A model generated the notes under the pieces. It had not been told where the DNA came from, searched no databases, and was given only the letters and a program-made list of their open reading frames with translations. A program made the translations under genes and the position numbers. From assembly GCA_964391545.1 (NCBI GenBank), contig CAYMMR010000002.1, forward strand, positions 1 to 34,873: DNA of 34,873 nucleotides, written 5' to 3'. This DNA is from an uncultured Nitrospinota bacterium. Lineage in GTDB: Bacteria > Nitrospinota > Nitrospinia > UBA9942. Shown piece by piece: positions 726 through 34,825 of this stretch (within the stretch, counting starts at the first letter, position 1; the number at the start of each line of letters is the position of its first letter).

Positions 726-1475
726 TTATTCCTTTATCGCCACAAAACTTATAATCCTTCCTGCTTGTTTACCTTCTTTCCGATAAGAAAAAAATCTGTC
801 ATTGTGGCAGTATGTGCAAAAATTAGTAGTAAGTATATTTTCCTGCTTTAATCCTGCCTCAATCAACTGCATTCTATTAGCCTTTTTAATATCCAACATC
901 CATTTTTCATTATCTTTCTTTATGGCAATATCTCTCCAATATGAGAATCTTTCTTTAAATGGATTAATACAATTATCATCCACCTCATAACAGCATTCTC
1001 CTATTCCCGGACCAATAACAGCAATTATATCTTTAGATGAGATAAGAAATTCCTCCATTATTTTAAGGACAGTCTTCTTAGAAATCTCCAGAGATGTCCC
1101 AACCCTGCCGGCATGAACAATACCAACAGCTTTTCCTTTTATATCCGCCAATATTACAGGAAGGCAGTCCGCCGTAAAAACGGCTATCGGAAATGCTCTC
1201 TTGTTCGTTATAATTGCATCGGCCTCAATTTGTTTAGGGGCAAGGGGCAAGGGGCAAGGGGCAAGTAACCCATGACCCATGACCCTTGACCCATGACCCT
1301 TGATAATATGTATATTGTCTCCGTGAACTTGTTTTACTGTAAATATCTTATTTGAGTCAAACCCAATTTGTTCTTTAAGAATATCCCCTATGCCGCCGCA
1401 TACTCTCGTTGTAAAGGCATGGGCTATATTGCCTATCTTATCAAGCTGATTGGAAATTATATACCTATCACGCAT
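726..1475 (-). CDS. pgeF: YfiH/PgeF (DUF152) family peptidoglycan editing factor / purine nucleoside phosphorylase-like protein, with a 22-codon repeat-derived insert
   Basis: Family motifs FTADCLPV, VHAGRVG and C-terminal CTYC..DRFFSYRKEG. The start overlaps the upstream radical SAM gene by 19 nt. The segment [22 protein letters not shown] is encoded by the heptamer hairpin at 1237-1302. Confidence 0.75.
   Translation of the reverse strand: MRDRYIISNQLDKIGNIAHAFTTRVCGGIGDILKEQIGFDSNKIFTVKQVHGDNIHIIKGHGSRVMGHGLLAPCPLPLAPKQIEADAIITNKRAFPIAVFTADCLPVILADIKGKAVGIVHAGRVGTSLEISKKTVLKIMEEFLISSKDIIAVIGPGIGECCYEVDDNCINPFKERFSYWRDIAIKKDNEKWMLDIKKANRMQLIEAGLKQENILTTNFCTYCHNDRFFSYRKEGKQAGRIISFVAIKE
1237..1302. 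repeat. periodic-arm hairpin, 7-nt units: (GGGGCAA)x4 - TAA - (CCCATGA/CCCTTGA)x4.5, inside pgeF
   Basis: Read directly. 66 nt = 22 codons, in frame. Confidence 0.9.
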
Positions 1476-3232
1476 TCAAAATCTCCGCATCTCCTGCATT
1501 CGCCTTTTTCAGGACACGATGGGGTTGTTCTCCCGTCTCTGCTCTTCTCTGCCTCTTTTACAAGATAATCTTTTCTTACACCGGAATCGATAAAATCCCA
1601 CGGTAAAATTTCATTATAATCCCTCTCCCGATAAACATAAAATTCAGGATTGATATTAGTCTCCCTGAATGTCTTAAACCAGTCGCCATTTAATCGATGA
1701 CACTTAAAAAGCAGTTCTCCCACCCTTCTATCCCCTCTCGATAGAAGAGCCTGAACATAAGACCATTTTGGCAATTCATGGATGACATTTATATTGCTTA
1801 TGCCTTTAAGTCCCGATTTTATCTTTTTAATCTTTCGATTCAACGATGCAACATCTTCCATCTTTTCCCATTGATATGGAGTAAATGGTTTCGGTATGAA
1901 GGGATTAATGCTTAAGGTTATATTTCCAAGATGTTTTTTGCCTTTTGCAATTTTTAAAACCGAGTGTTTTATCTTTTTTGACAGGCTGACAATCGCTTCT
2001 ATATCATCGTCGGTCTCCGTAGGAAGGCCGATAAGAAAATACAGCTTAAAATCCGGTATTCCTGCCGAGGCTATAACCTGAACTGCAGCGATAATCCCGT
2101 CATCGCTCATCTCTTTATTTATAGCCCTTCTTAGTCTTTCAGAGCCTGCCTCCGGGGCAATCGTAGCCGTCCTGTGTCCGCTGTCGGATAAGAATTCGAT
2201 TAATCGTTCCGATAGCCTATCCAGCCTCAAGGAAGATACCGAAATAATGCCTCCCATTCCCTCTATACCGTCGCATATTTTGGAGATATCCGGATTATCG
2301 CATATCGCCGCCCCTACCAGTCCGATCTTTTTTCTGTATTTTAATCCTTCCGAAGCCTCTTTGAGTATAACATCGGCGCTGTAATTTCTCGAAGGGCGGT
2401 AACTATATCCGGACAGACAGAATCTGCAGTGTTTCCCGCACCCCCTTCCAACCTCAATCATATACATATCTCCGAATACCGTATTCGATGTTATTATACG
2501 AGAAGAAGTCGGAGTCATGTTTAAATTCTTTACCCATCTCCTCTTAACCTTTGAGGGAAAACCGTCTTGCGGCAATATCTCTTCAATCTCCCCCGATTTA
2601 TTATAAGACACCTCATAAGCAGATGGTATATATATGCCATCAATAGCGGAGAGCCTTTGGTAAAACCTATCTTTAACCACTGACCACTGACCACTGACCA
2701 CTGACTCATAGTTTTCTCTCAACACTTCAACAACCTCATCTATCGCCTCATCGCCTTCTCCGACAAAAAATATATCGATAAAATCGGAGAGCGGCTCGGG
2801 ATTAAAGGCGGCGCAAATTCCGCCCATTAGTATTAAAGGGTATTTTCCATTTCTGTCGCTGCCTTTTACAGGTATATGAGAAAGGCCGAGCATCCGGAGT
2901 ATATTTATATAATCGGATTCAAATGTAACCGAAAAGGCGGCAATATCGAAATTCTGCACAGGGGTCTGCGATTCGAGCGAAAAAAGGGGAATATTCTCTT
3001 TCTCAAAATGAATTAAATCTTCAGGGGAAGGGAGAAATACCCTTTCGCAAAGGATGTCGGGATGACGGTTAAGTAGAGAGTATATCTTTTGAAAACCAAG
3101 GTTGGACATCCCTACCCGATAGGTATTCGGGTAACAGAGGGCAAATGTTATCTTGCCGCCAAAAGATTTTTTTACAGCGCCTGTCTCCTCCGAGAGGAGA
3201 CCCTTCATCCTTTCATAAAGCTGCCATGACAT
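1457..3232 (-). CDS. radical SAM protein with N-terminal B12-binding-like domain (TIGR03960-like)
   Basis: CX3CX2C cluster GRGCGKHCRFCLSGY, about 590 aa, Cys-rich C-terminus (CPEKGECRRCGDFEC). Contains four perfect CCACTGA heptamers at 2677-2705. Confidence 0.75.
   Translation of the reverse strand: MSWQLYERMKGLLSEETGAVKKSFGGKITFALCYPNTYRVGMSNLGFQKIYSLLNRHPDILCERVFLPSPEDLIHFEKENIPLFSLESQTPVQNFDIAAFSVTFESDYINILRMLGLSHIPVKGSDRNGKYPLILMGGICAAFNPEPLSDFIDIFFVGEGDEAIDEVVEVLRENYESVVSGQWSVVKDRFYQRLSAIDGIYIPSAYEVSYNKSGEIEEILPQDGFPSKVKRRWVKNLNMTPTSSRIITSNTVFGDMYMIEVGRGCGKHCRFCLSGYSYRPSRNYSADVILKEASEGLKYRKKIGLVGAAICDNPDISKICDGIEGMGGIISVSSLRLDRLSERLIEFLSDSGHRTATIAPEAGSERLRRAINKEMSDDGIIAAVQVIASAGIPDFKLYFLIGLPTETDDDIEAIVSLSKKIKHSVLKIAKGKKHLGNITLSINPFIPKPFTPYQWEKMEDVASLNRKIKKIKSGLKGISNINVIHELPKWSYVQALLSRGDRRVGELLFKCHRLNGDWFKTFRETNINPEFYVYRERDYNEILPWDFIDSGVRKDYLVKEAEKSRDGRTTPSCPEKGECRRCGDFECVIGI
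2677..2705. repeat. single-arm heptamer array (CCACTGA)x4, perfect, inside the radical SAM CDS
   Basis: Read directly. Encodes SVVSGQWSVV on the minus strand. Confidence 0.9.
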
Positions 3233-3243
3233 TATTTAAAAAA

Positions 3244-3305
3244 GGTTGAGGTTGAGGTTGAGGTTGAGCGATTGTTTTTCTTAACCTTAACCTTAGCCTT
3301 AACCT
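3244..3305. repeat. periodic-arm hairpin, 6-nt units: (GGTTGA)x4 - 11-nt spacer - (CTTAAC/CTTAGC)x4
   Basis: Intergenic between the radical SAM start and the Zn-ribbon gene stop. The arms pair with G:U at one position per unit on the plus strand. Confidence 0.9.
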
Positions 3306-3312
3306 TTGTTTT

Positions 3313-5364
3313 CTATTTGACTTTTAGTTCCTCTATGTCAACCTTCTTTACCCTTCCGTTTTTCATATTCTCGTTAATATTACGGATTACTACCTCCTTC
3401 AATTTCTCCCTTACAAAGTGGGTGTCTTCATAAAATTTATCCCTGAAGAATTGGTCAACGGAATCCTCCAATATTCCTTCATAATACATAGGATTCTTTT
3501 TAATTATATCCGCAGACTCTTTGTTTTCGAGCTCCAATTTTACATTCATGGTCATAACTTTATTCTCCTCGGGGCTAAAGGATATTGGCAATATAATACC
3601 CAATCTTGCAAGTCTTTCTTCTGGAACAGGCGGCGCAGGAGGCGTCGAGGCTGTCTGCGTTTCTGCCTGTGAAGGCTGCTGCGATTCGGTTAGATTCGCT
3701 TCGCCCGCTGCAGGCTTCTTTTCCATTTCCGCAGGCTTTTCCGTTTCTAAAGGCTTAACCGGTTCTTCCACCTTTTTCTCCTCAATGCGAGGTTTTGGAG
3801 AAGGTCTCTCTTTTACGGCTACAATTTCTTCCTTCTCCTTTACGCCGGACATCCATTTTTTAGCAACTACTACAATAACTAAGGTTCCGGCGGCAAGAAT
3901 TGCAAGCATAATAAGCGATAGGATTATCAGTTTCCATGTAATTTTCCTTTTACCGGCAGGGGCTTCTCCCTGGTCTGCCGATGCCTCTTCCGTTAAACCT
4001 GTAGTGAGCGAAGCGAATCTATCAATATCCTGTTGCGCCCCTTTTTTTAAAAATCTACCCTGCAATTTCGATAGATAGGATGATAGACGGACATTCTCCA
4101 TTATCTTTCCGAAGAATCCGGAGCCTTTAGGCTTAAACTCCTCTTCCATATCCGCCATTACATCTATCGGAGAGGTATCTTCAGCTGTATCGGAAACAGG
4201 ACGGCGGGCTTCGGTTTCCAAATTTTCAGATGAAACCATCGTCCCATCTAACGATTCGGATGCCTTTTTCATGACATCGTCAAATTCAGAAGATATAGAA
4301 GGCTCTGGCACAGCTTCTCCAGATACCGCAGATTCTCTTTGCGCATCGCCGATATTCATCTCTACCGCTGTGTCTTCCATCAACTTATCTAAATCTATCT
4401 CTCCTTCGCCTCCTGCTTGTGCCGGTGGTGCGGCAGGCGGATTAATATCCGCCTCGATAGCGCTATTTTCAGGCGACGTGCTTAATGACCCGGCAAGAAG
4501 TTTATCCATTTCTTCCTGACTCAGAATGCCTCCTGTTTTTATATCGGCATCCAATGGGACAAATTCTTGTTCCTGAAAAATCGGCAGATCCGCCTCTATA
4601 GCAGGTTCAGCCTCTTTTTCTTCTTCAACTGCCGCCGAGTTTTGCGAAAAACCTGCATCTCCCAAATCGAGTTCGGGCTCTGTGGTTTGAGGGGTTGATT
4701 CAACAGGAGAGATTTGGCTGACAATATCGGAGGTCTGTTCTCTATTTTCTATGCCGTCTCCTTCCTCCGATTTCTTTTCTTCCAACTCATTTAAAAACTC
4801 ATCGATACCGGCATCCTCTAAGTGCGGCTCATCCTTTTCCGGTTCCGCAGCAACAGAAGACGCAATATCTTCCGTAAAAACAGAAAGCTCATCTTCGGCA
4901 GATTTTTCGACAGACGCAGAAAATCCTTCATTTAAAATGTCTTTAAGCCGCTCTTCTCCAGGAAGCGCTTTTTCCTTTAATATATCGGATTCTATTTCAT
5001 TTAATAACTCGCCGACCCCATCTTTATCCTCTTTCACATCCGACCCGTTATTCCCTGTTTCCGTTCCTTGCCCCTCCTGCTTACTGTCCCTGCTTGAATC
5101 ATGCAGGGACATGCTTGCAGAGCCTGCCCCGCACTCGATGCTGGGGGCAAGCCCGCCTCCTGCTCCATCGAACATAGCCCTTTCTTCCCATTTTGATATG
5201 TTCTCCTTCAAGCTGCTGACGATATTATTCAATTCAACGGCTTCTCTTTTCTTTACAAAGAATATACTCCCGCATTTATAGCACTTGGCTTTTATGCCTT
5301 CTGCAGTAATAATATCGTCCTTTACTTTATATTTCGATGTGCACTTAGGGCAGCGAAGCAGCAT
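3313..5364 (-). CDS. MJ0042-type zinc-ribbon protein with long acidic linker, one TM helix and a FliL-like C-terminal domain
   Basis: N-terminus is MLLRCPKCTSKYKV..(17 aa)..CYKCGSIFFV. About 450 aa are D/E/S/P-rich and low complexity. The TM helix is WKLIILSLIMLAILAAGTLVIVVVA (about nt 3853-3936). The last ~100 aa (LPISFSPEENKVMTMNVKLELENKESADIIKKNPMYYEGILEDSVDQFF...) resemble FliL. It lies in the flagellar operon. Confidence 0.5.
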   Translation of the reverse strand: MLLRCPKCTSKYKVKDDIITAEGIKAKCYKCGSIFFVKKREAVELNNIVSSLKENISKWEERAMFDGAGGGLAPSIECGAGSASMSLHDSSRDSKQEGQGTETGNNGSDVKEDKDGVGELLNEIESDILKEKALPGEERLKDILNEGFSASVEKSAEDELSVFTEDIASSVAAEPEKDEPHLEDAGIDEFLNELEEKKSEEGDGIENREQTSDIVSQISPVESTPQTTEPELDLGDAGFSQNSAAVEEEKEAEPAIEADLPIFQEQEFVPLDADIKTGGILSQEEMDKLLAGSLSTSPENSAIEADINPPAAPPAQAGGEGEIDLDKLMEDTAVEMNIGDAQRESAVSGEAVPEPSISSEFDDVMKKASESLDGTMVSSENLETEARRPVSDTAEDTSPIDVMADMEEEFKPKGSGFFGKIMENVRLSSYLSKLQGRFLKKGAQQDIDRFASLTTGLTEEASADQGEAPAGKRKITWKLIILSLIMLAILAAGTLVIVVVAKKWMSGVKEKEEIVAVKERPSPKPRIEEKKVEEPVKPLETEKPAEMEKKPAAGEANLTESQQPSQAETQTASTPPAPPVPEERLARLGIILPISFSPEENKVMTMNVKLELENKESADIIKKNPMYYEGILEDSVDQFFRDKFYEDTHFVREKLKEVVIRNINENMKNGRVKKVDIEELKVK

Positions 5365-5454: not shown

Positions 5455-6201
5455 TCAGAATGGGAGTTTTTTAATCAGACTGAAACTTGCAGTCTCTGCT
5501 ACCTCTTCAAAGGTTACCGGTCTTGCCCTCATGGCCTCGACTGCAATCGTTGCCTGTCCAGAACCTTCCCATACAATATTTCCAGTCGAAACATCCCACA
5601 CCTGAAGGAATATCTTAACGGTAGTCTCCCTTGTCGAAATAAGAGATAATCCAAGAAAAGAGAATCTTGAATATGTTGTTTCCGTAAAAGATAACAGCCT
5701 TGGCTGCGCCACATACCGAACATCGAGCGCATTGCCTATCCTTTTAAGGAGGCTTATGTTCAGTATGCCGGTAATATCATAATAATCCAGCATTTCCGAA
5801 TAAGAGCTTGTAAGCCCGGCATTGTTAATGCTGTTTATAGCCTCTCTCGATGAAACAAAGACGATTGAAGGTTTTTCCAGCTTAAATGCCTTTTCCAATA
5901 TATCCGAAACCGTCAGCCTGTATTCTCCAAGGTTGCTCCACCTCGAAACTATCGTAGTAAGAAAACCTATACGATGATCGTTTACATCTTCTATAACAGG
6001 AGAGCGGTATAATTCATTTGCGCTATAGTTTATCTGCTTGAAAGGCCCGCTGCAGCCTGCAATGAAGAAGAATACAGAAGACAGAAGACAGAAGACAGAA
6101 TAAAAAAACCGATTAATCCGCAGATTACGCAGATTTTCGCAGATTTCTTGACTTCTGTCATCTGTCATCTGTCCTCTGTCTTCTGTCCTCTGTCTTCTCA
6201 T
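5455..6201 (-). CDS. putative lipoprotein (flagellar-operon associated, family not recognised)
   Basis: Lipobox FFFIAGCSG follows the hydrophobic stretch YSVFCLLSSVFFF. The N-terminal ~45 codons are encoded by heptamer arrays. Alternative start at M12 (nt 6168). The stop of the upstream maf-like gene overlaps the start (ATGA). Confidence 0.55.
   Translation of the reverse strand: MRRQRTEDRGQMTDDRSQEICENLRNLRINRFFYSVFCLLSSVFFFIAGCSGPFKQINYSANELYRSPVIEDVNDHRIGFLTTIVSRWSNLGEYRLTVSDILEKAFKLEKPSIVFVSSREAINSINNAGLTSSYSEMLDYYDITGILNISLLKRIGNALDVRYVAQPRLLSFTETTYSRFSFLGLSLISTRETTVKIFLQVWDVSTGNIVWEGSGQATIAVEAMRARPVTFEEVAETASFSLIKKLPF
6064..6199. repeat. composite periodic hairpin: (AAGACAG-type)x5 - spacer containing CGCAGAT x3 - (CTTCTGT/CATCTGT/CCTCTGT)x7
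   Basis: Left arm 6064-6100. Three CGCAGAT copies at 6119, 6128 and 6138. Right arm 6152-6199. Covers the 5' end of the lipoprotein ORF. Confidence 0.9.
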
Positions 6202-9217: not shown

Positions 9218-9270
9218 GTTGAGTTGTTAAGTTGTTGAGTTGTTTAACTACTTAACTACTAAACTACTTA
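9218..9270. repeat. periodic-arm hairpin, 8-nt units: (GTTGAGTT/GTTAAGTT)x3.4 directly abutting (AACTACTT/AACTACTA)x3
   Basis: Intergenic between the fliK stop (9283) and the flgD start (9192). Confidence 0.85.
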
Positions 9271-9282
9271 AAAGCTGAATTG

Positions 9283-21235: not shown

Positions 21236-21253
21236 AACACCCCCACTTACAGA

Positions 21254-21317
21254 GGGACAAGGGGCAAGGGACAAGTAAAAACTTGACCCATGACCCATGA
21301 CCCATGACCCATGACCC
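21254..21317. repeat. GGGGCAA/CATGACC-subfamily hairpin: GGGACAAGGGGCAAGGGACAAG - TAAAAA - CTTGACC(CATGACC)x4C
   Basis: Fills the fliE stop (21324) to fliF start (21235) gap. Confidence 0.92.
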
Positions 21318-22232: not shown

Positions 22233-22249
22233 AAACCCCCCAATAAAAA

Positions 22250-22317
22250 GGGTCAAGAAGCAAGGGGCAAGGGGCAATCAAAAACAAACTTGACCCTTGC
22301 TACATGACCCTTGACCC
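22250..22317. repeat. GGGGCAA/CATGACC-subfamily hairpin (degenerate copy)
   Basis: GGGTCAAGAAGCAAGGGGCAAGGGGCAA - TCAAAAACAAA - CTTGACCCTTGCTACATGACCCTTGACCC. Fills the flgB stop to flgC start gap. Confidence 0.88.
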
Positions 22318-22325
22318 TGTTAAAT

Positions 22326-25312: not shown

Positions 25313-25318
25313 ATTTAA

Positions 25319-25400
25319 GGGGCAAGGGACAAGGGGCAAGGGACAAGGGACAAGAAAAGTAACTGTTTTTACTTGACCCATGACCCATGACCCATGACCC
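25319..25400. repeat. GGGGCAA/CATGACC-subfamily hairpin: (GGGGCAA/GGGACAA)x5 - 17-nt spacer - CTTGACC(CATGACC)x3C
   Basis: Fills the dnaE stop (25402) to accA start (25312) gap. Confidence 0.92.
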
Positions 25401-25401
25401 T

Positions 25402-28400
25402 TTATTCAAAGTATACCACATCATCTCCAAAGATACCTTCAATATCTTTAATCATCAAATCATCCGGGGAGACCTGAAAAGTTTTATCAAGCCCTATGTT
25501 TATCTGGCTCTTATCCGGGAAAAAAATATGGAGGAAGATGTTATTTTTCCCTTTTCTCAACGATAAAACCTCTTTCAAGCGAATCAGCGTATCCTTTTCC
25601 AGTCCTACCGCCTGAATGTTTATGTGAACCTTTGAAGAGAGCCTTTCCCTTATGTTTAAGAGAGAGAAAATCTCCCTTGCAATTATCTTTGTCGAATCGT
25701 CTTCTGCGCTTATGCTCCCCTTAACCCAGATAGGGTCTTCCCCTTCGATGAGGCTTAACGCCGTCTTATACAAGTCGGGAAATATTATCATCTCCGATGA
25801 GCCATGAAGGTCTTCGAGTGTCGCAAATGCCATTGTATCGCCCTTTTTCGTAACCTGAGTCCTGTATTTGCTTATAACCCCTGCAATGCTTATCTCCCTC
25901 CCGTTCTTTATATCCTGAAGGGTCTGAGTATTTACATTCGTAAAATGTCTTATATCTTTTTCGAATCTCGAGAGGGGATGTCCGGATATATAAAAACCAA
26001 GGGATTCTTTTTCATAGGATAAAAGTTCCTTTTCTGTCCATTCTAAATCAGGGACTGGAGACTGGAGACTGGAGACTTGTTTTTTACCGGCGCCAAGCCC
26101 CAAGCCTCCAGCCCCTATCCCAAAATTATCGAACATATTATACTGCCCTCTCTCCCTGTCTTTCTGAACTGTCTGTGCGTTGTTTATAGTCGCATCGAGG
26201 CCGTTTATCATGGATGCCCTATAGGTTTTTGGAGATAGGTTTTTAGAATCGGCTGTCCCGTCGAATGCACCGCACTTTATGAGGCTTTCTATTACCTTTC
26301 TGTTTACCGCCCTCAAATCAACACTCTCGCAAAAATCCATCAGGGAGTTAAAACTACCCTTTGCCTCTCTTGCCTTCAATATCGCCTCTACTGCGCTTCC
26401 TCCTACATTTTTTACAGCCGCAAGGCCAAACCTAATTCCTCCCCTTGCCCCTTCCTCATAAGCGGTTGTAAAATCGCTAAAACTCTCATTAATATCCGGC
26501 GGAAGCACCAGTATACCCATATCCTTGCACTCGGCTATATACTGTATCAGCTTATCCGTATTCCCCATTTCGCTCGAAAGCAGCGCAGACATAAACTCCA
26601 GCGGATAGTGCGACTTGAGATATGCTGTCTGATAAGCAACAAGGGCATAAGCAGCGCTGTGCGATTTATTAAACCCGTAACCTGCAAAATGCTCCATCAG
26701 GTCGAATATCTTATCCGCCTTATCCTCCGGTATCCCTTTGGCTGCGGCGCCCTTTACAAACTTCTCCCTCTGCTGAGCCATCTCCTCGGGTTTCTTCTTA
26801 CCCATCGCCCTTCTGAGCGTATCCGCAGCCCCCATGCTGAAGCCGCCGAGCGTTCCGGCTATTCTCATAACCTGCTCCTGATAAAGTATTACGCCATAAG
26901 TCTCCTTCAAAATATCATCCAATTGTGGAACTATATTTTTTATAGAAACGGTTCCGTGTTTTCTTTTAATAAAATCATCCACCATTCCGCTGCCGAGCGG
27001 TCCCGGGCGGTATAATGCAACCAGGGCTATAACATCCTCAAAAACCTCCGGTTTTAACTTCCTTAATATATCCCTCAATCCCGAGCTTTCAAGCTGAAAT
27101 ACGCCAAATGTTCTTGCATCGCTCAAGAGCTTATATGTATCTTTATCGTCCAAAGGTATATTCTCTATATTGAAATCCTTCTCATATTTACTCCTGATAA
27201 GCTCCTCTGTTTTTCTTATAACAGTAAGAGTTCTCAAGCCGAGGAAATCCATCTTTAATAGCCCGAGTTTTTCAATATCCTCCATCGGATACTGGGTCGT
27301 TATCTCGCCCCTATTAGCCTTATAAAGAGGCATGAATTCCGTAAGAGGCGCAGGAGATATGACAACGCCCGCTGCATGGGTTGAGGCGTGTCTCGGAAGC
27401 CCCTCGAGCCTTCTCGCTATATCGAGGAGGCTCTTAACCCTCTCGTCCTTTTTTTCGAACTCCTTAAATCTCGGCTCTTCTTTTATCGCATCGTCCAGCG
27501 TGATATTCAGCCTGTTCGGAACCAATTTGGCAATCCTGTCCGCATCGCTGTATGGCATTGCCATCGCCCTGCCTACATCTCTTATAACCGCCTTTGCATT
27601 CATGCTTCCAAAAGTTATTATCTGTGCGACATTTCCGTATTTTTCCGTTACATAGGCTATTACCTCGTCTCTCCTTTCCATGCAGAAATCTATATCTATA
27701 TCCGGCATGCTTATCCTCTCCGGGTTTAAAAACCTCTCGAAGAGCAGTCCATATTTTATCGGGTCGAGGTCGGTAATCCGTAAAGAGTAAGCAACCAGAC
27801 TTCCCGCTGCAGACCCCCTGCCGGGTCCCACAGGGATCCCTTTTCTTCGCGCATAATCTATAAAGTCCCACACGATGAGAAAATATCCCGAGTATCCCAT
27901 AGTCTTTATCATCTTGATCTCATTTTCCAATCTATCGAAATATACCTTTCTTATATCTTCTTCTGCCCCCTGACCCCTGACCCCCGACCCTTCTTTTTTA
28001 AGCCTTGCCTCCAAGCCGTGTATTGCCATATCACGAAGGTAGCCGTCCAGAGTAGTATCGGAAGGGACATCGTAGCGCGGCAGGTGAATCTGGTCGAATC
28101 TCATATCCAGATTGCATCTCTCCGCTATTTCCATAGTGTTTGAGATAGCCTCCGGCGCCTCTTTAAAGAGGTGCTTCATCTCCTGAGGAGATTTAAAATA
28201 AAACTGATTCGTAGTAAACCGCATCCTCTTAGGGTCGTCGGTCGTCTTGCCCGTCTGAATGCAGAGGAGAATCTCATGTGCATCGGCATCCTTTTCATCC
28301 ATATAATGGCAATCGTTTGTAGCTGCAAGCGGGATGGAGAGCTTCTTTGCCATCTCCAGCATATCCCTGTTTATACCCTTCTGGTCGGGTATATTCTGGT

Positions 28401-28946: not shown

Positions 28947-29015
28947 GATTTGGGATTTGGGATTTGGGATTTGGGATTTTTCAAAATCCAAAATCAAAAA
29001 TCCAAAATCAAAAAT
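28947..29015. repeat. periodic-arm hairpin, 7-nt units: (GATTTGG)x4 GATTTTT - (CAAAATC/AAAAATC)x4
   Basis: Fills the FYDLN-acid stop (29016) to dnaE start (28944) gap. Confidence 0.92.
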
Positions 29016-29294: not shown

Positions 29295-29313
29295 AAATCC
29301 CTCCAAAAATTCA

Positions 29314-29375
29314 GGGGCAAGGGGCAAGGGGCAAGGGACAAGTATATTTTTATCTTGACCCATGACCCATGACCC
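29314..29375. repeat. GGGGCAA/CATGACC-subfamily hairpin: (GGGGCAA)x3 GGGACAAG - TATATTTTTAT - CTTGACC CATGACC CATGACCC
   Basis: Fills the guaA stop (29386) to FYDLN-acid start (29294) gap. Confidence 0.92.
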
Positions 29376-29385
29376 TTCTGTTTTC

Positions 29386-30957
29386 CTATTCCCACTCTAT
29401 CGTGCTCGGTGGTTTTGAGCTGATGTCATAAACAACCCTGTTTACCCCTTTTACCTCATTAATTATACGATTCGATATGCTGCCAAGCAAATCATAAGGA
29501 AGCTTTGCCCAATCGGCAGTCATGCCGTCCGTGCTTGTTACAGCCCTAAGCCCTATAACATTCTCATAAGTCCTTTCATCCCCCATAACACCAACTGTCT
29601 TGACAGGCAAAAGGACTGCAAAAGACTGCCATATCTCCCTGTAAAGACCTGCCTTTTTAATCTCCTCGAGGACAATTGCATCAGCCTCTCTCAATATATC
29701 GAGCCTCTCCTTTGTAACCTCGCCTAAAACCCGTATAGCAAGCCCCGGTCCCGGGAACGGCTGGCGCCACAAAACATCATCAGGCATATCCAATTCCTTG
29801 CCGAGAAGCCTTACCTCATCTTTAAACAATTCCCTCAAAGGTTCGATTAACTCAAACTCCATATCCGTAGGGAGCCCTCCTACATTGTGATGCGTCTTTA
29901 TTGTAGCAGACGGACCTTTAAATGATATGCTTTCGATTACATCCGGGTAAAGCGTTCCCTGCGCAAGAAAATCGAACCCCCCTATTTTTTTTGATTCATC
30001 TTCGAATACTGCGATAAATTCCCTTCCTATAATCTTCCTTTTTTCTTCCGGGTCGGTAACGGCTCTTAACTTATTTAAAAATCTCTCTTCTGCATCGGCA
30101 TATATCAATTTTATATGAAAATTATCTCTGAAAATGGATAAAACCTTCTCCGCCTCTCCCTTTCTCAACAGCCCGTTATTTACAAAAACACAAATAAGCC
30201 TGCCGCCTATCGCCTTATGCGCCAAAACCGCCGTAACCGATGAATCGACACCTCCGCTTAAAGCGCACATTACCCTCTTTTTGTCAACTATCTTTCTAAT
30301 ATTCTCTACAGAATATTCTGCAAAAGACGCCATTGTCCATGACGGAGAACAGCGGCAGATATTATAAAGAAAATTTTTAAAAAAATCCATACCTTTCGGA
30401 GTATGAGTTACCTCAGGGTGAAACTGGAGGCCGAAGAGCCTCGAATCCTTGAACTTCATGGCTGCAACAGGAGAATTATCGGTATGGGCAATACTTATAA
30501 ATCCATCCGGCATTTTTTCAATACGATCGCCGTGGCTCATCCAAACCGTAACGGAGCGTTGAGTGTTGGGTGTTGAGTGTTGAGAAATGTTTTTGAATAT
30601 ATCTGAATCGTCATCAATGAGCAGTTCTGCCTTTCCATATTCCCTTTTTGCCGATTTCGATACCACCCCGCCTAAAAGATGGGTCATCAACTGCATCCCA
30701 TAGCATATACCAAGCACAGGAATCCCAAGCTCAAACACCTTTTTATCCGCAATAGGAGCATCCTTTGCATAAACACTCGATGGACTGCCGGACAATATTA
30801 TCCCTTTCGGATTCTCCTTCTTAATCTTTTCAATCTCCGTATTAAACGGGACTATCTCGCAATATACCTTGCATTCTCTTACCCTTCTTGCAATCAACTG
30901 GGTATACTGAGAGCCGAAGTCGAGAATTAATATCTTTTCCTGATGTATGTCTTTCAT
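29386..30957 (-). CDS. guaA: GMP synthase (glutamine-hydrolysing) GuaA, with a repeat-derived loop
   Basis: GATase GICYGMQ, PP-loop SGGVDSS, C-terminal [10 protein letters not shown]. Confidence 0.97.
30556..30584. repeat. single-arm heptamer array GCGTTGA GTGTTGG GTGTTGA GTGTTGA G inside guaA
   Basis: Read directly. Encodes [10 protein letters not shown]. Confidence 0.85.
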
Positions 30958-33028: not shown

Positions 33029-34825
33029 CTACCTCCTCAAAAACCCCTTCAATATCTGTCCTTTATCCATGCTCAAGGCAATCGGCCTTCCGTGAGGACA
33101 GGTAAAGGGTCTGCTTGTCCTCATAAGCTCTTTCACGAGAGATTCCATCTCCTCGATACCCAGCCTCTGATTTGCTTTAACGGCTCCCCTGCACGCCATT
33201 ATTAAAATCATATCATTGACAATCTCATCGAAAGATGTATTTCGCTGATGGACAATTAGTTTATCGAGAATATCCCTTATTAACTGCTTATAATCATCTC
33301 CCGAAAGAAGCGATGGCACAGCTCTTATTATAAAGCTGTTTCCTCCGAAAGATTCTATATCAAACCCCAATTTCTTAAAATTGTCAAGATTTGATTGCAG
33401 TATAACGGATTCTTTGCTTGATACTTCCATATTCACCGGCAGCAGCAATGTTTGAACCTCTATCTTCGAATCCTTGATTTTTTGCAAAAATCTCTCGTAT
33501 AAAATCCTTTCATGGGCAGTATGCTGGTCAATAAATATTATATTATCGGCGCCTTCGAGTATTATAAAGGAATCGAATATTTGTCCCACAGGCTTAAATT
33601 GCGAGAGATTGGATTCGGTTTCAGGGGATAATTTAAGTGTCGAGTGTTGAGTGTTGAGTGTTGAGTATCTATTGAAATTTTTAATTCCCGACTCCAAATT
33701 TCCGGGTCCTGACTCCTGTCCTGATATATACCGTTCTATCGTCTCCCTAACCCTGTCCTTATATAGTTCGGAGTTCGGGGCTCGGAGTTCGGAGTTCTGC
33801 TCCTGACTCCCAACTCCCGGATCCCAACTCCCGGCTCTTTTCATGCTTTCCCTTATCGCATCCCTTACAAAATCATGAACCTCGCCTTGTTTTGCAAACC
33901 TTACTTCTATCTTCGAGGGGTGGACATTTACATCCACCATTTCGGGGTCAATATTCAAAAACAGAAAATATGCAGGATGTCTGTCTTTAGGCAGCAGTGT
34001 TCTAAATGCCTCATAAATTGCGTGGTTTATAACCCTGTCCTTTATATAGCGATTATTAACGAATATATATTGCAAACTTCTGCCCGCCATATTTATGGAT
34101 GGCTTAGACACATATCCTTCGAGCGACAATCCGCCCCGCACATAATTTATTTGCGGGGCAAGGCTATCCGTTATCTCGTATCCAAATATCGAGGCTATGC
34201 GGTCAAGAATATTATTCGTCGAGGCAGTATCTATTATCGCCTTATTGCCATTTATCATTTTGAATCGTATTACCGGATGGGAAAGCGCATGCTGGTTCAC
34301 CGACTCTATTATATGGGACAACTCGGTAGCGTCCGACTTCATGAATTTTAACCGTGCAGGTATGTTTAAGAATAAATCCTTAACCTCGATAGATGTTCCC
34401 TTAACGGGCGGGGCGTCTTTTATCGCCTTTACAATGCCGTTATCCAGCTCTATTTCGGTCCCCGAAGAATCTCCGGCGGAACGGGTAAGCAGTCTTACAT
34501 TGGAAACAGAGGCTATGCTCGGCAGAGCCTCGCCTCTAAACCCGAGAGTGGTAATTTTATGAAGGTCGTGAGCGGTCTTTATCTTGCTCGTGGCATGTCT
34601 TTCAAAGGCGAGGGAGGCATCCTCCCTTAACATACCGGAGCCGTCATCCATTACCCTTATATATCTCTTTCCGCTCCCCTTTACTTCTACCGTAATAGCG
34701 CCTGCGCCTGCATCTATCGAATTCTCTATAAGCTCCTTTACCACAGAGGCAGGCCTCTCCACCACCTCACCGGCTGCTATACGATTGACCAATTCATCCG
34801 GTAATTTTACAATCCTGCCTTCCAT
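33029..34825 (-). CDS. mutL: DNA mismatch repair protein MutL, linker region built largely from heptamer arrays
   Basis: N-terminal GHKL ATPase (NRIAAGEVVERPASVVKELIENSIDAGA, GFRGEALPSIASV, VNVHPSKIEVRF). C-terminal dimerisation domain (FIIRAVP, CPHGRP). Confidence 0.95.
   Translation of the reverse strand: MEGRIVKLPDELVNRIAAGEVVERPASVVKELIENSIDAGAGAITVEVKGSGKRYIRVMDDGSGMLREDASLAFERHATSKIKTAHDLHKITTLGFRGEALPSIASVSNVRLLTRSAGDSSGTEIELDNGIVKAIKDAPPVKGTSIEVKDLFLNIPARLKFMKSDATELSHIIESVNQHALSHPVIRFKMINGNKAIIDTASTNNILDRIASIFGYEITDSLAPQINYVRGGLSLEGYVSKPSINMAGRSLQYIFVNNRYIKDRVINHAIYEAFRTLLPKDRHPAYFLFLNIDPEMVDVNVHPSKIEVRFAKQGEVHDFVRDAIRESMKRAGSWDPGVGSQEQNSELRAPNSELYKDRVRETIERYISGQESGPGNLESGIKNFNRYSTLNTQHSTLKLSPETESNLSQFKPVGQIFDSFIILEGADNIIFIDQHTAHERILYERFLQKIKDSKIEVQTLLLPVNMEVSSKESVILQSNLDNFKKLGFDIESFGGNSFIIRAVPSLLSGDDYKQLIRDILDKLIVHQRNTSFDEIVNDMILIMACRGAVKANQRLGIEEMESLVKELMRTSRPFTCPHGRPIALSMDKGQILKGFLRR
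33637..33667. repeat. single-arm heptamer array GTGTCGA (GTGTTGA)x3 GTA inside the mutL linker (same unit as in guaA)
   Basis: Read directly. Encodes [11 protein letters not shown]. Confidence 0.88.
33686..33724. repeat. degenerate heptamer run TCCCGAC TCCAAAT TTCCGGG TCCTGAC TCCTGTC CTGA inside the mutL linker
   Basis: The 7-nt TCC.... periodicity was read directly. Weak. Confidence 0.5.
33765..33834. repeat. periodic-arm hairpin, 7-nt units: AGTTCGG AGTTCGG GGCTCGG AGTTCGG AGTTC - TGCTCCT - GACTCCC AACTCCC GGATCCC AACTCCC GG, inside the mutL linker
   Basis: Read directly. Encodes AGSWDPGVGSQEQNSELRAPNSEL. Confidence 0.88.

Follow-up and report, generated by a model that had tools for sequence, protein, structure and literature searches.

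Why two unrelated housekeeping genes should contain the same short tandem repeat is the question raised by the 34,873-nt contig CAYMMR010000002.1 of an uncultured Nitrospinota bacterium (assembly GCA_964391545.1), which was analysed over its whole length and is referred to here as the window. Both guaA and mutL carry an array of the heptamer GTGTTGA, and a preliminary description of the sequence had taken this as a sign that the two arrays were copied or inserted from a common source. We found a genome saturated with heptanucleotide repeats, which largely explains why two unrelated genes share an array. The two arrays are probably passive heptamer cassettes, maintained by slippage and tolerated in a loop of GuaA and in the linker of MutL, within a dense population of such arrays that extends over the whole clade. 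Judged by their counterparts in related genomes, both appear to be old residents and not recent insertions.

The two arrays and their host genes

The features at the two loci are the following.
30556..30583, minus strand: guaA heptamer array (plus strand GCGTTGA GTGTTGG GTGTTGA GTGTTGA)
33637..33664, minus strand: mutL linker array 3 (plus strand GTGTCGA followed by three GTGTTGA)
29386..30957, minus strand: guaA, GMP synthase, 523 amino acids, with GATase and GMP_synt_C domains
33029..34825, minus strand: mutL, 598 amino acids, with HATPase_c_3, DNA_mis_repair and MutL_C domains and three arrays in the interdomain linker
33765..33797, minus strand: mutL linker array 2, sense (ACTCCGA)x4+ACT, encoding NSELRAPNSEL
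33806..33832, minus strand: mutL linker array 1, GGGAGTT-type in the sense direction, complementary to array 2
33688..33717, minus strand: probable decayed partner arm (GGAGTCG-type) upstream of mutL array 3

The GTGTTGA-type arrays were read directly in both genes, four units each, and both genes lie on the minus strand, as described before. In the sense direction the guaA array reads (T)CTCAAC ACTCAAC ACCCAAC ACTCAAC GC.. and covers approximately residues 124-134 of GuaA, and mutL array 3 reads three ACTCAAC, ACTCGAC and ACT (residues ~387-396), between the DNA_mis_repair (210-328) and MutL_C (413-555) domains. Tandem Repeats Finder placed them at 30554-30584 (period 7, 4.4 copies, 87% matches) and 33636-33666 (period 7, 4.4 copies, 95% matches). 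The starts in the preliminary description were correct, while its end for guaA (30584) is one base long and that for mutL (33667) includes three non-repeat bases; the GuaA repeat peptide, said to stand immediately before VWMSHGD, is close to this motif but separated from it by two residues (VT). The heptamer GTGTTGA occurs nine times in the window against 1.46 expected, a number attained in none of 100 shuffles, and the 14-mer (three mismatches or fewer) occurs eight times against 1.34 expected. Tandem copies are present only at the guaA and mutL sites.

The sequences flanking the two arrays are unrelated, neither array has a target-site duplication, and a search for partner arms around both revealed no inverted repeat involving either of them. 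The window sequence upstream of mutL array 3 is ..GGAGTCAGGACCCGGAAATTTGGAGTCGGGAAT.., at a place where the relative L005 retains (GGAGTCG)x3.4 (L005 7342-7365), so that 33688-33717 is probably the decayed relic of a GGAGTCG partner array kept in L005. Arrays 1 and 2 of mutL form a hairpin-capable pair within the coding sequence, with 26-nt arms that are 77% complementary and 10 nt apart and a predicted fold of -34.5 kcal/mol for the sense RNA. Both GTGTTGA-type arrays lie at sites that tolerate extra residues, namely a coil loop in the glutaminase domain of GuaA and the interdomain linker of MutL. In the AlphaFold2 model of GuaA, residues 122-134 are coil, and the block 121-130 has a mean predicted local distance difference test score of 65, the lowest in the GATase domain. 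Four contigs have identical GuaA, the two MutL alleles on record differ at one residue, located within array 2, and the 90% protein clusters hold almost no allelic variation.

Strand and frame add little to the comparison of the two genes. As GTGTTGA contains TGA, only the opposite strand (TCAACAC) of a tandem array can be coding, and since 7 and 3 share no factor, the units run through all three frames and any frame yields the same cyclic seven-residue peptide, STLNTQH. The common plus-strand orientation and the near-identical peptides in the same frame, both cited as evidence of a shared source, are thus real, but the one is forced and the other is arithmetic. The absence of a partner arm is equally true of both arrays and not special, since many arrays of the window are solo, without a complementary partner. 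Three of the four arguments brought forward earlier (orientation, frame and peptide, lack of a partner arm) therefore carry no weight. A constraint of this kind on strand and frame was already pointed out for TAACTGA repeats by MacGregor 2015 (PMC4679880). When 185,579 species genomes were scanned for (GTGTTGA)3, matches came from at least 120 genome contigs of many phyla; among the matches listed there are 131 arrays of three or more units, and in all of them the longest spanning open reading frame (ORF) reads the TCAACAC strand. Deep within long ORFs lie 33 of these 131 listed arrays, which encode STLNTQH-type peptides. One of the 131 belongs to a Nitrospinota genome (L021, 886-952), which has (GTGTTGA)x4.6 adjoining (TTAATTC)x5 in the gene of a thiamine-pyrophosphate enzyme, where the insert divides the match to the central domain, TPP_enzyme_M.

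Two intrinsic causes of unit re-use were considered and rejected. GTGTTGA is not favoured as such: it has 13 viral-contig matches, and scrambles of equal composition have 8, 10 and 3. A filter for benign peptides would retain the units that are stop-free and polar at six or more of seven residues (555 of 2340 strand-specific units); it narrows the choice about 4-fold and covers only part of a 12-fold excess.

Unit turnover at conserved sites

To compare the two sites among relatives, syntenic loci were taken for GuaA proteins 70-90% identical to that of the window, the closest of which are named 'Nitrospinae bacterium' metagenome-assembled genomes by their sources. In relatives whose GuaA is 86-90% identical, arrays of equal length but of other units occupy the same two positions, in guaA and in mutL. 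Set in one register, the guaA arrays read as follows.
Window: TCTCAAC ACTCAAC ACCCAAC ACTCAAC GCTCC
L005: (ACTCGTC)x3 ACTCATC ACTCT
L006: ATTCCCA (AATCCCA)x3 AATCT
L008: (AAGCTCA)x4 AAGCT
L186: ACTCCGA ACTCCGC ACTCCAC ACTCCTC ATTCT (decaying, four units)
L187: ACTCCGA ACTCA
L130: perfect (ACTCCGA)x5.6
L131: decayed version of that in L130
L009: no repeat

In the window, L005, L006, L008 and L186 the array segment measures 33 nt, and the L187 and L186 arrays differ by exactly 21 nt, or three units (1.7 against 4.7), which is the only length step that preserves the reading frame. Two units of the decaying L186 array, ACTCCAC and ACTCCTC, are one step from units fixed in the window and L005. The inferred ancestral guaA unit is ACTCCGA, from the outgroup L130 together with L186 and L187.

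The proposal that the guaA array is an insertion, to be verified by orthologue alignment, holds in part. Between DIFK and VWMSHGD (excluded) the GuaA of the window has 19 residues compared with 11-13 in array-less orthologues, and its loop is 6-8 residues longer than in the nearest of these. An insertion relative to all GuaA proteins was rejected, because the E. coli and Coxiella proteins align without a gap. Among 120 homologues the length of this loop varies from 9 to 34 residues, array-less orthologues are common, and dozens of lineages have 7-residue periodic peptides at the loop. One large clade (homologues P0036-P0119) has a decayed PNSELRT-type repeat, a fixed-length 'fossil' in 523-residue proteins. 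The most re-used coding unit is CCGAACT (PNSELRT), found in array 2 of the window mutL, in mutL array 3 and at dnaE residue 962 of L006, and in the GuaA of L130, L131 and L186. In L132 a perfect palindrome (AATCCCCCCTCGTCCCCCTT..AAGGGGGGCGAGGGGGGATT) occupies the GuaA loop (guaA 4381-4419), and 40 nt upstream of guaA (3961-4010) there is a similar hairpin, CCCCCTTT/AAAGGGGG. P0010, from a separate GuaA clade, has a near-identical loop peptide (IPPAPPLLKGGKGGL vs IPPRPPFLKGGEGGL), a likeness suggestive of repeated insertion or exchange at the loop.

In the MutL of the window, L005, L006 and L008, array 3, placed between FNRY and LSPETES, accounts for ten residues. The array of L005 consists of two ACTCACC, ACTCACA, ACTCGCC and ACT; that of L006 is a perfect (ACTCCGA)x4 ACT, and L008 has an unrelated ATCGTCC array. 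The window and L005 have the G of unit 4 in common and differ at position 6 of every unit, which implies that a substitution passed to all units and a variant specific to one unit was nonetheless retained. This comparison offers direct evidence of homogenisation within the array without a change of length. Silent sites of the window and its relatives are far diverged: four-fold degenerate sites are just 44-58% identical, and unit differences of two to four in seven positions thus fit neutral drift plus homogenisation. Some orthologous arrays are better conserved than the four-fold sites, such as that at dnaE ~318 (L005 = L006) and mutL array 1 (L006 = L008). Two independent assemblies (L003 and L004) match the window without mismatch over 2-3 kb, and the sole difference is one missing GGGTCAT unit, a copy-number polymorphism of one 7-nt unit in the spacer between guaA and the FYDLN_acid gene (window 29356-29375).

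The frequency of shared units was assessed by counting units as identical in any rotation and on either strand. Identical-unit pairs of arrays make up 2.5% of pairs within genomes and 0.88% between genomes, compared with 0.06% of random pairs. Of the 20 identical pairs found between genomes, 16 join sites that are not orthologous (0.70% of pairs). At this rate of 0.70%, about 2.6 identical pairs are expected among the 368 non-adjacent pairs of the window, so that one such pair needs no special event. Pairs at a unit distance of one or less amount to 9.1% within genomes, 3.5% between genomes and 2.0% at random. Local copying was rejected as a source of similarity, as arrays separated by less than 5 kb are no more alike than those farther apart (10.1% vs 8.4% at a distance of one or less, p=0.54).

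Beyond the unit itself, the guaA and mutL arrays have a common form, [ACTCNNN]x4+ACT, of about 31 nt. The (ACTCCGA)4ACT version of this cassette is present at mutL array 3 of L006 and at mutL array 2 of the window (33765-33797). Units with an ACTC/GAGT core make up 15 of 78 clade arrays against about five expected (approximately 3-fold, orthologous sites being counted repeatedly). The guaA and mutL arrays are best seen, on these patterns, as members of one ACTC-core cassette subfamily, and a common family origin of both is plausible. The earlier argument from shared unit to shared origin is therefore plausible at the level of the cassette family, while a direct copy from one locus to the other is not demonstrated. 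In the sister genome L008 the guaA unit CTCAAAG, two steps from CTCAACA, and the L005 mutL unit ACTCACC imply that both units were ACTCAAC-like before the lineages split. The identity of the two units in the window would then be old and not the result of a recent transfer.

These comparisons suggest the following course of events. Arrays would arise and stay uniform by replication slippage or transient misalignment of neighbouring units, a form of concerted evolution. Selection would purge frameshifting or stop-containing states, and within genes the only survivors would be arrays read on the strand free of stops and of a length divisible by 3 nt. The ACTCAAC unit of guaA and mutL would reflect common cassette ancestry or occasional overwriting of one array by another, with no recent insertion, and the encoded peptides would be passengers rather than functional motifs.

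Several observations sit uneasily with slippage and drift in place. Starting from the ancestral ACTCCGA, the guaA unit reached the unit resident in mutL by three specific changes, for which the chance is about 2% with the ACTC core fixed; such a convergence fits overwriting better than drift. Array 3 of the L006 mutL is a perfect (ACTCCGA)4, although the closer relative L005 shares the ACTCA/CC+G form of the window, and the guaA/FYDLN spacer has GGGTCAT/CTTGCCC in the window as opposed to CAGTAAG/CTGCTTA in L006 and L008; both look like wholesale replacements, unexplained by drift in situ. A constant length of 33 nt through complete unit turnover is not predicted by simple slippage. Moreover, no unit-step change was seen at either array among the four contigs with identical GuaA and the two MutL alleles, and the sample of this genome is limited, about 41 kb in all.

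The main rival is therefore direct copying between loci, close to what had been proposed before, in which the sequence of one array replaced that of the other, or a third copy replaced both, through ectopic templated repair, gene conversion or an activity that inserts cassettes. The shared unit would then be a trace of transfer between arrays. The match of the window guaA to the resident mutL unit in place of the ancestral ACTCCGA, the two apparent replacements just mentioned and the surplus of near-identical pairs within genomes all favour it. So do the genome-specific families, of which GGGTCAT/CTTGCCC occupies five loci of the window and none of the orthologous spacers of relatives, and the near-identical palindromic peptides that two separate clades (P0010, P0047) have at the same loop of GuaA. 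We nevertheless regard this copying as rather unlikely, given that the arrays share no flanks and have no target-site duplication, that the L008 guaA and L005 mutL units make the identity old, that neighbouring arrays show no excess of similar units, and that the clade-wide repertoire alone is expected to produce a few identical pairs in the window. A stronger version, in which the clade runs an active process that writes or overwrites cassettes of about 31 nt at permissive, often hairpin-prone sites and spreads genome-specific units, seems unlikely to us; were it real, the identical guaA and mutL arrays, the unit replacements and the constant length would be footprints of a templated mechanism that installs or converts repeats, with a continual supply of new loop peptides in essential enzymes as its by-product.

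Selection for the arrays themselves, as heptamer-periodic binding sites, as RNA or DNA structures acting in translation, mRNA stability or replication, or through a useful STLNTQH peptide, is hard to reconcile with units, and hence peptides, that are not conserved among relatives at either site. Both arrays are solo and have no structure, and array-less GuaA orthologues are common; in addition, 30 adjacent array pairs gave no consistent bias in folding energy between sense and antisense strands, and the whole window had no Rfam match at gathering thresholds. Paired arrays elsewhere do form strong predicted hairpins (-20 to -60 kcal/mol) directly 5' of start codons, the GGGTCAW/CTTGCCC pair is found in contigs of 40-69% GC, and the dnaE ~318 array and mutL array 1 exceed the conservation of four-fold sites, yet on balance we judge selection quite improbable. 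It is more improbable still that slippage created each array de novo and the shared unit is pure coincidence. The coincidence was, admittedly, chosen post hoc, and heptamer arrays of any unit are widespread, scrambled units being about as common as (GTGTTGA)3. Against this stand the common architecture of four units plus ACT, the ACTC core, the ACTCCGA cassette at both loci in relatives and the random expectation for an identical pair. Repeat-mediated switching of mutL is known in enterobacteria, and a unit that is not a multiple of 3 means that a gain or loss of one copy would turn the gene off, giving a reversible mutator state in mutL or a frameshift in guaA; unit-step polymorphism is indeed present in the guaA/FYDLN spacer. 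Such contingency (phase-variation) switches are the explanation we give least credit, because every mutL and guaA copy seen is in frame (in a shallow sample of alleles), the hosts are housekeeping genes and not the surface or restriction genes typical of such loci, a similar array is present in the essential dnaE, and 21 nt is the sole length change seen in coding sequence. Taken together, slippage-maintained cassettes tolerated at permissive sites remain our preferred explanation.

The array population of the window

Tandem Repeats Finder returned 32 period-7 rows for the window, and a strict scan detected 21 arrays of period 7, compared with none in 20 shuffles that preserved dinucleotides. 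After gene starts had been corrected by Pfam profiles, 24 of the 36 non-redundant arrays of period 6-8 were non-coding and 12 were in genes, although non-coding DNA makes up only 11.3% of the window; the arrays are thus predominantly intergenic. Density is about one array per kb and 16 times higher outside genes. More than 20 different units are present among 28 arrays. Nearly all intergenic spacers consist of two adjoining, mutually complementary arrays, whose predicted hairpins range from -15 to -46 kcal/mol, and coding pairs of relatives reach -61. The relatives L005, L006, L008 and L009 have 10-13 arrays per 12-22 kb. An assembly artefact was ruled out by the identical contig sequence in the JGI, ENA and NCBI assemblies. 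Density is uneven, as the 6,084 nt beyond the window end upstream of mutL (L001 1-6084, with two-component-system genes) have no period-7 array.

Arrays inside genes were found in yfiH, a radical-SAM gene, dnaE (three), guaA (one) and mutL (three). Arrays of the window outside the two loci discussed above include the following.
1236..1303, minus strand: composite (GGGTCAW)n/(CTTGCCC)n inside the yfiH (Cu-oxidase_4) coding region
2676..2705, minus strand: in-frame array GTCAGTG x4.3 in the radical-SAM gene, residue ~176 (Tandem Repeats Finder)
26053..26115, minus strand: in-frame complementary pair GGGGCTT / AGTCTCC in dnaE, residues ~944-965, sense fold -33.7 kcal/mol
27963..27990, minus strand: in-frame array GGGTCAG x4 in dnaE, residue ~318-319
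28947..29015, minus strand: FYDLN/dnaE spacer, wholly complementary pair ATTTTGG / AAATCCC
29313..29375, minus strand: guaA/FYDLN_acid spacer, complementary pair of (GGGTCAT)n and (CTTGYCC)n with an AT-rich loop

The orthologous arrays at dnaE ~318-319 in L005 and L006 are (GTCAGTG)x3.7, a unit one nucleotide off the GGGTCAG of the window. The CCAAATC unit of the window FYDLN/dnaE spacer is the unit found inside guaA of L006. Another contig, L002 (= L134; positions 2804-3607), is identical to the window up to a point inside dnaE (window ~28247) and then continues with unrelated sequence, which reflects either a chimeric assembly or an insertion. In the mutL of L008 (7250-7337) we observed an in-coding complementary pair with a predicted hairpin of -50.7 kcal/mol in the sense and -60.9 kcal/mol in the antisense direction.

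The composite of (GGGTCAW)n, an AT-rich loop and (CTTGYCC)n occurs five times on the minus strand, at 1236-1303, 21253-21317, 22248-22318, 25317-25400 and 29313-29375. Four genes, fliF, flgC, accA and the FYDLN_acid gene, have a copy directly 5' of their true start, and the fifth copy is the one within yfiH. The arms pair as CAAGGGU/GCCCUUG with G-U wobbles, and the loop sequence is not conserved among copies. The GGGTCAW/CTTGCCC composite was also found in 19 metagenome contigs of 40-69% GC, mostly from other taxa, and no further ACTCAAC array was present in these 19 contigs. The ORF starts at 21298, 22277, 25381 and 29363 are 15-23 codons early in both the mechanical and the JGI gene calls, as ATG/TTG triplets occur within the arrays and the Pfam profiles start at a downstream Met. 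For annotation, this means that ATG triplets in GGGTCATGGG arrays make gene callers stretch ORFs into 5' repeat hairpins.

Complementary arrays are also present at 6064-6100, (TGTCTTC)n, and 6152-6198, (TGACAGA)n; the former lies in ORF 5455..6201 and supplies the hydrophobic core of its putative lipoprotein signal peptide (..FFYSVFCLLSSVFFFIAGC). The flgD/fliK spacer (9218-9271) contains 8-mer arrays, (GTTGAGTT)x3.4 and (TAACTACT)x3.5, and the GTTGAGTT unit corresponds to GTGTTGA plus one T in the same plus-strand orientation.

Comparison with known repeat families

The closest known kind of arrays are heptanucleotide repeats like the short tandemly repeated repetitive (STRR) sequences. According to the summary of Mrazek et al. 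2007 in PMC4679880, heptanucleotide repeats are in many bacteria the commonest class of long simple-sequence repeat (LSSR) and are attributed to polymerase slippage. Heptanucleotide LSSR (Mrazek, Guo and Shah 2007) and the STRR of cyanobacteria (Mazel et al. 1990) are described as head-to-tail 7-nt units with few copies per array, many arrays per genome, a strong intergenic bias and unit-step length variation, there attributed to slippage. The window agrees in its tandem 7-nt units, in its many dispersed arrays above chance and in whole-unit copy-number variation, the latter at sites other than the guaA and mutL arrays. It differs from that outline in having more than 20 units in 35 kb instead of a few dominant ones, arrays that are mostly complementary pairs, and one third of the arrays in housekeeping genes at positions conserved between species. 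Assignment to the cyanobacterial STRR in the strict sense was rejected, as these have few genome-typical units (STRR1-3) and the host here is a member of Nitrospinota.

The TAACTGA repeats of marine Beggiatoaceae, cyanobacteria and Bacteroidetes (PMC4679880) likewise form heptamer arrays of two to six copies, mostly 5' of genes; stops also bar one orientation from ORFs and the other gives a 7-residue peptide, LSVISYQ, as compared with STLNTQH here. They have a single dominant unit and peripheral in-ORF copies, unlike the many units and the internal sites in GuaA, MutL, DnaE and YfiH described here. No TAACTGA array was found in the window and only one among 349 arrays in 120 other loci, so membership of this family was rejected. 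The GGGAATC and GGGGA(T/C)T repeats of Xanthomonas and Nostoc (Rehm et al. 2015, PMC4692102) similarly have a period of 7 and a preference for about four units, lie less than 50 bp from ORF ends, occasionally form inverted pairs and are rich in G-tracts, like GGGTCAT/CTTGCCC of the window. The ACTCAAC arrays, in contrast, have no G-tracts, and G-quadruplex formation therefore cannot explain the guaA and mutL arrays.

Repetitive extragenic palindromic (REP) elements and bacterial interspersed mosaic elements (BIME), Rickettsia palindromic elements (RPE) and miniature inverted-repeat transposable elements (MITE) were rejected as well, on the basis of the missing partner arm, the unrelated flanks and the non-conserved loops of the composites. 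The Rickettsia elements, reportedly described by Ogata and colleagues in 2000, are said to be inserted in frame into genes and to have a full-length consensus of 100-150 bp. As in that case, repeated DNA is tolerated at surface positions of conserved housekeeping proteins with their function intact; here, however, the shared part is no more than a 7-nt unit, and a conserved element of full length is lacking. One relative, L009, contains a PF01797 Y1_Tnp gene, without a shown link to the arrays.

In-gene repeat units of Borgs are multiples of 3 nt, unlike the 7-nt unit found here, for which only three-unit steps hold the frame. In Borgs, archaeal extrachromosomal elements, fast-evolving perfect repeats also add low-complexity peptide segments, there disordered regions (PMC9879509), while the arrays described here are in bacterial housekeeping genes. 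We found no paper that links such heptanucleotide repeats to Nitrospinota. What sets the arrays apart from the described families is the variety of units, the systematic complementary pairing, and in-frame arrays that persist at fixed housekeeping sites while their units turn over. The perfect non-triplet repeats in loops of GuaA, MutL, DnaE and YfiH, with site and length held while silent sites are near saturation and the units change, are what deserves to be retained from this locus. They provide a natural system for the study of 7-nt homogenisation in essential genes without frameshift, of overwriting from other loci, and of new loop sequences that result from repeat turnover.

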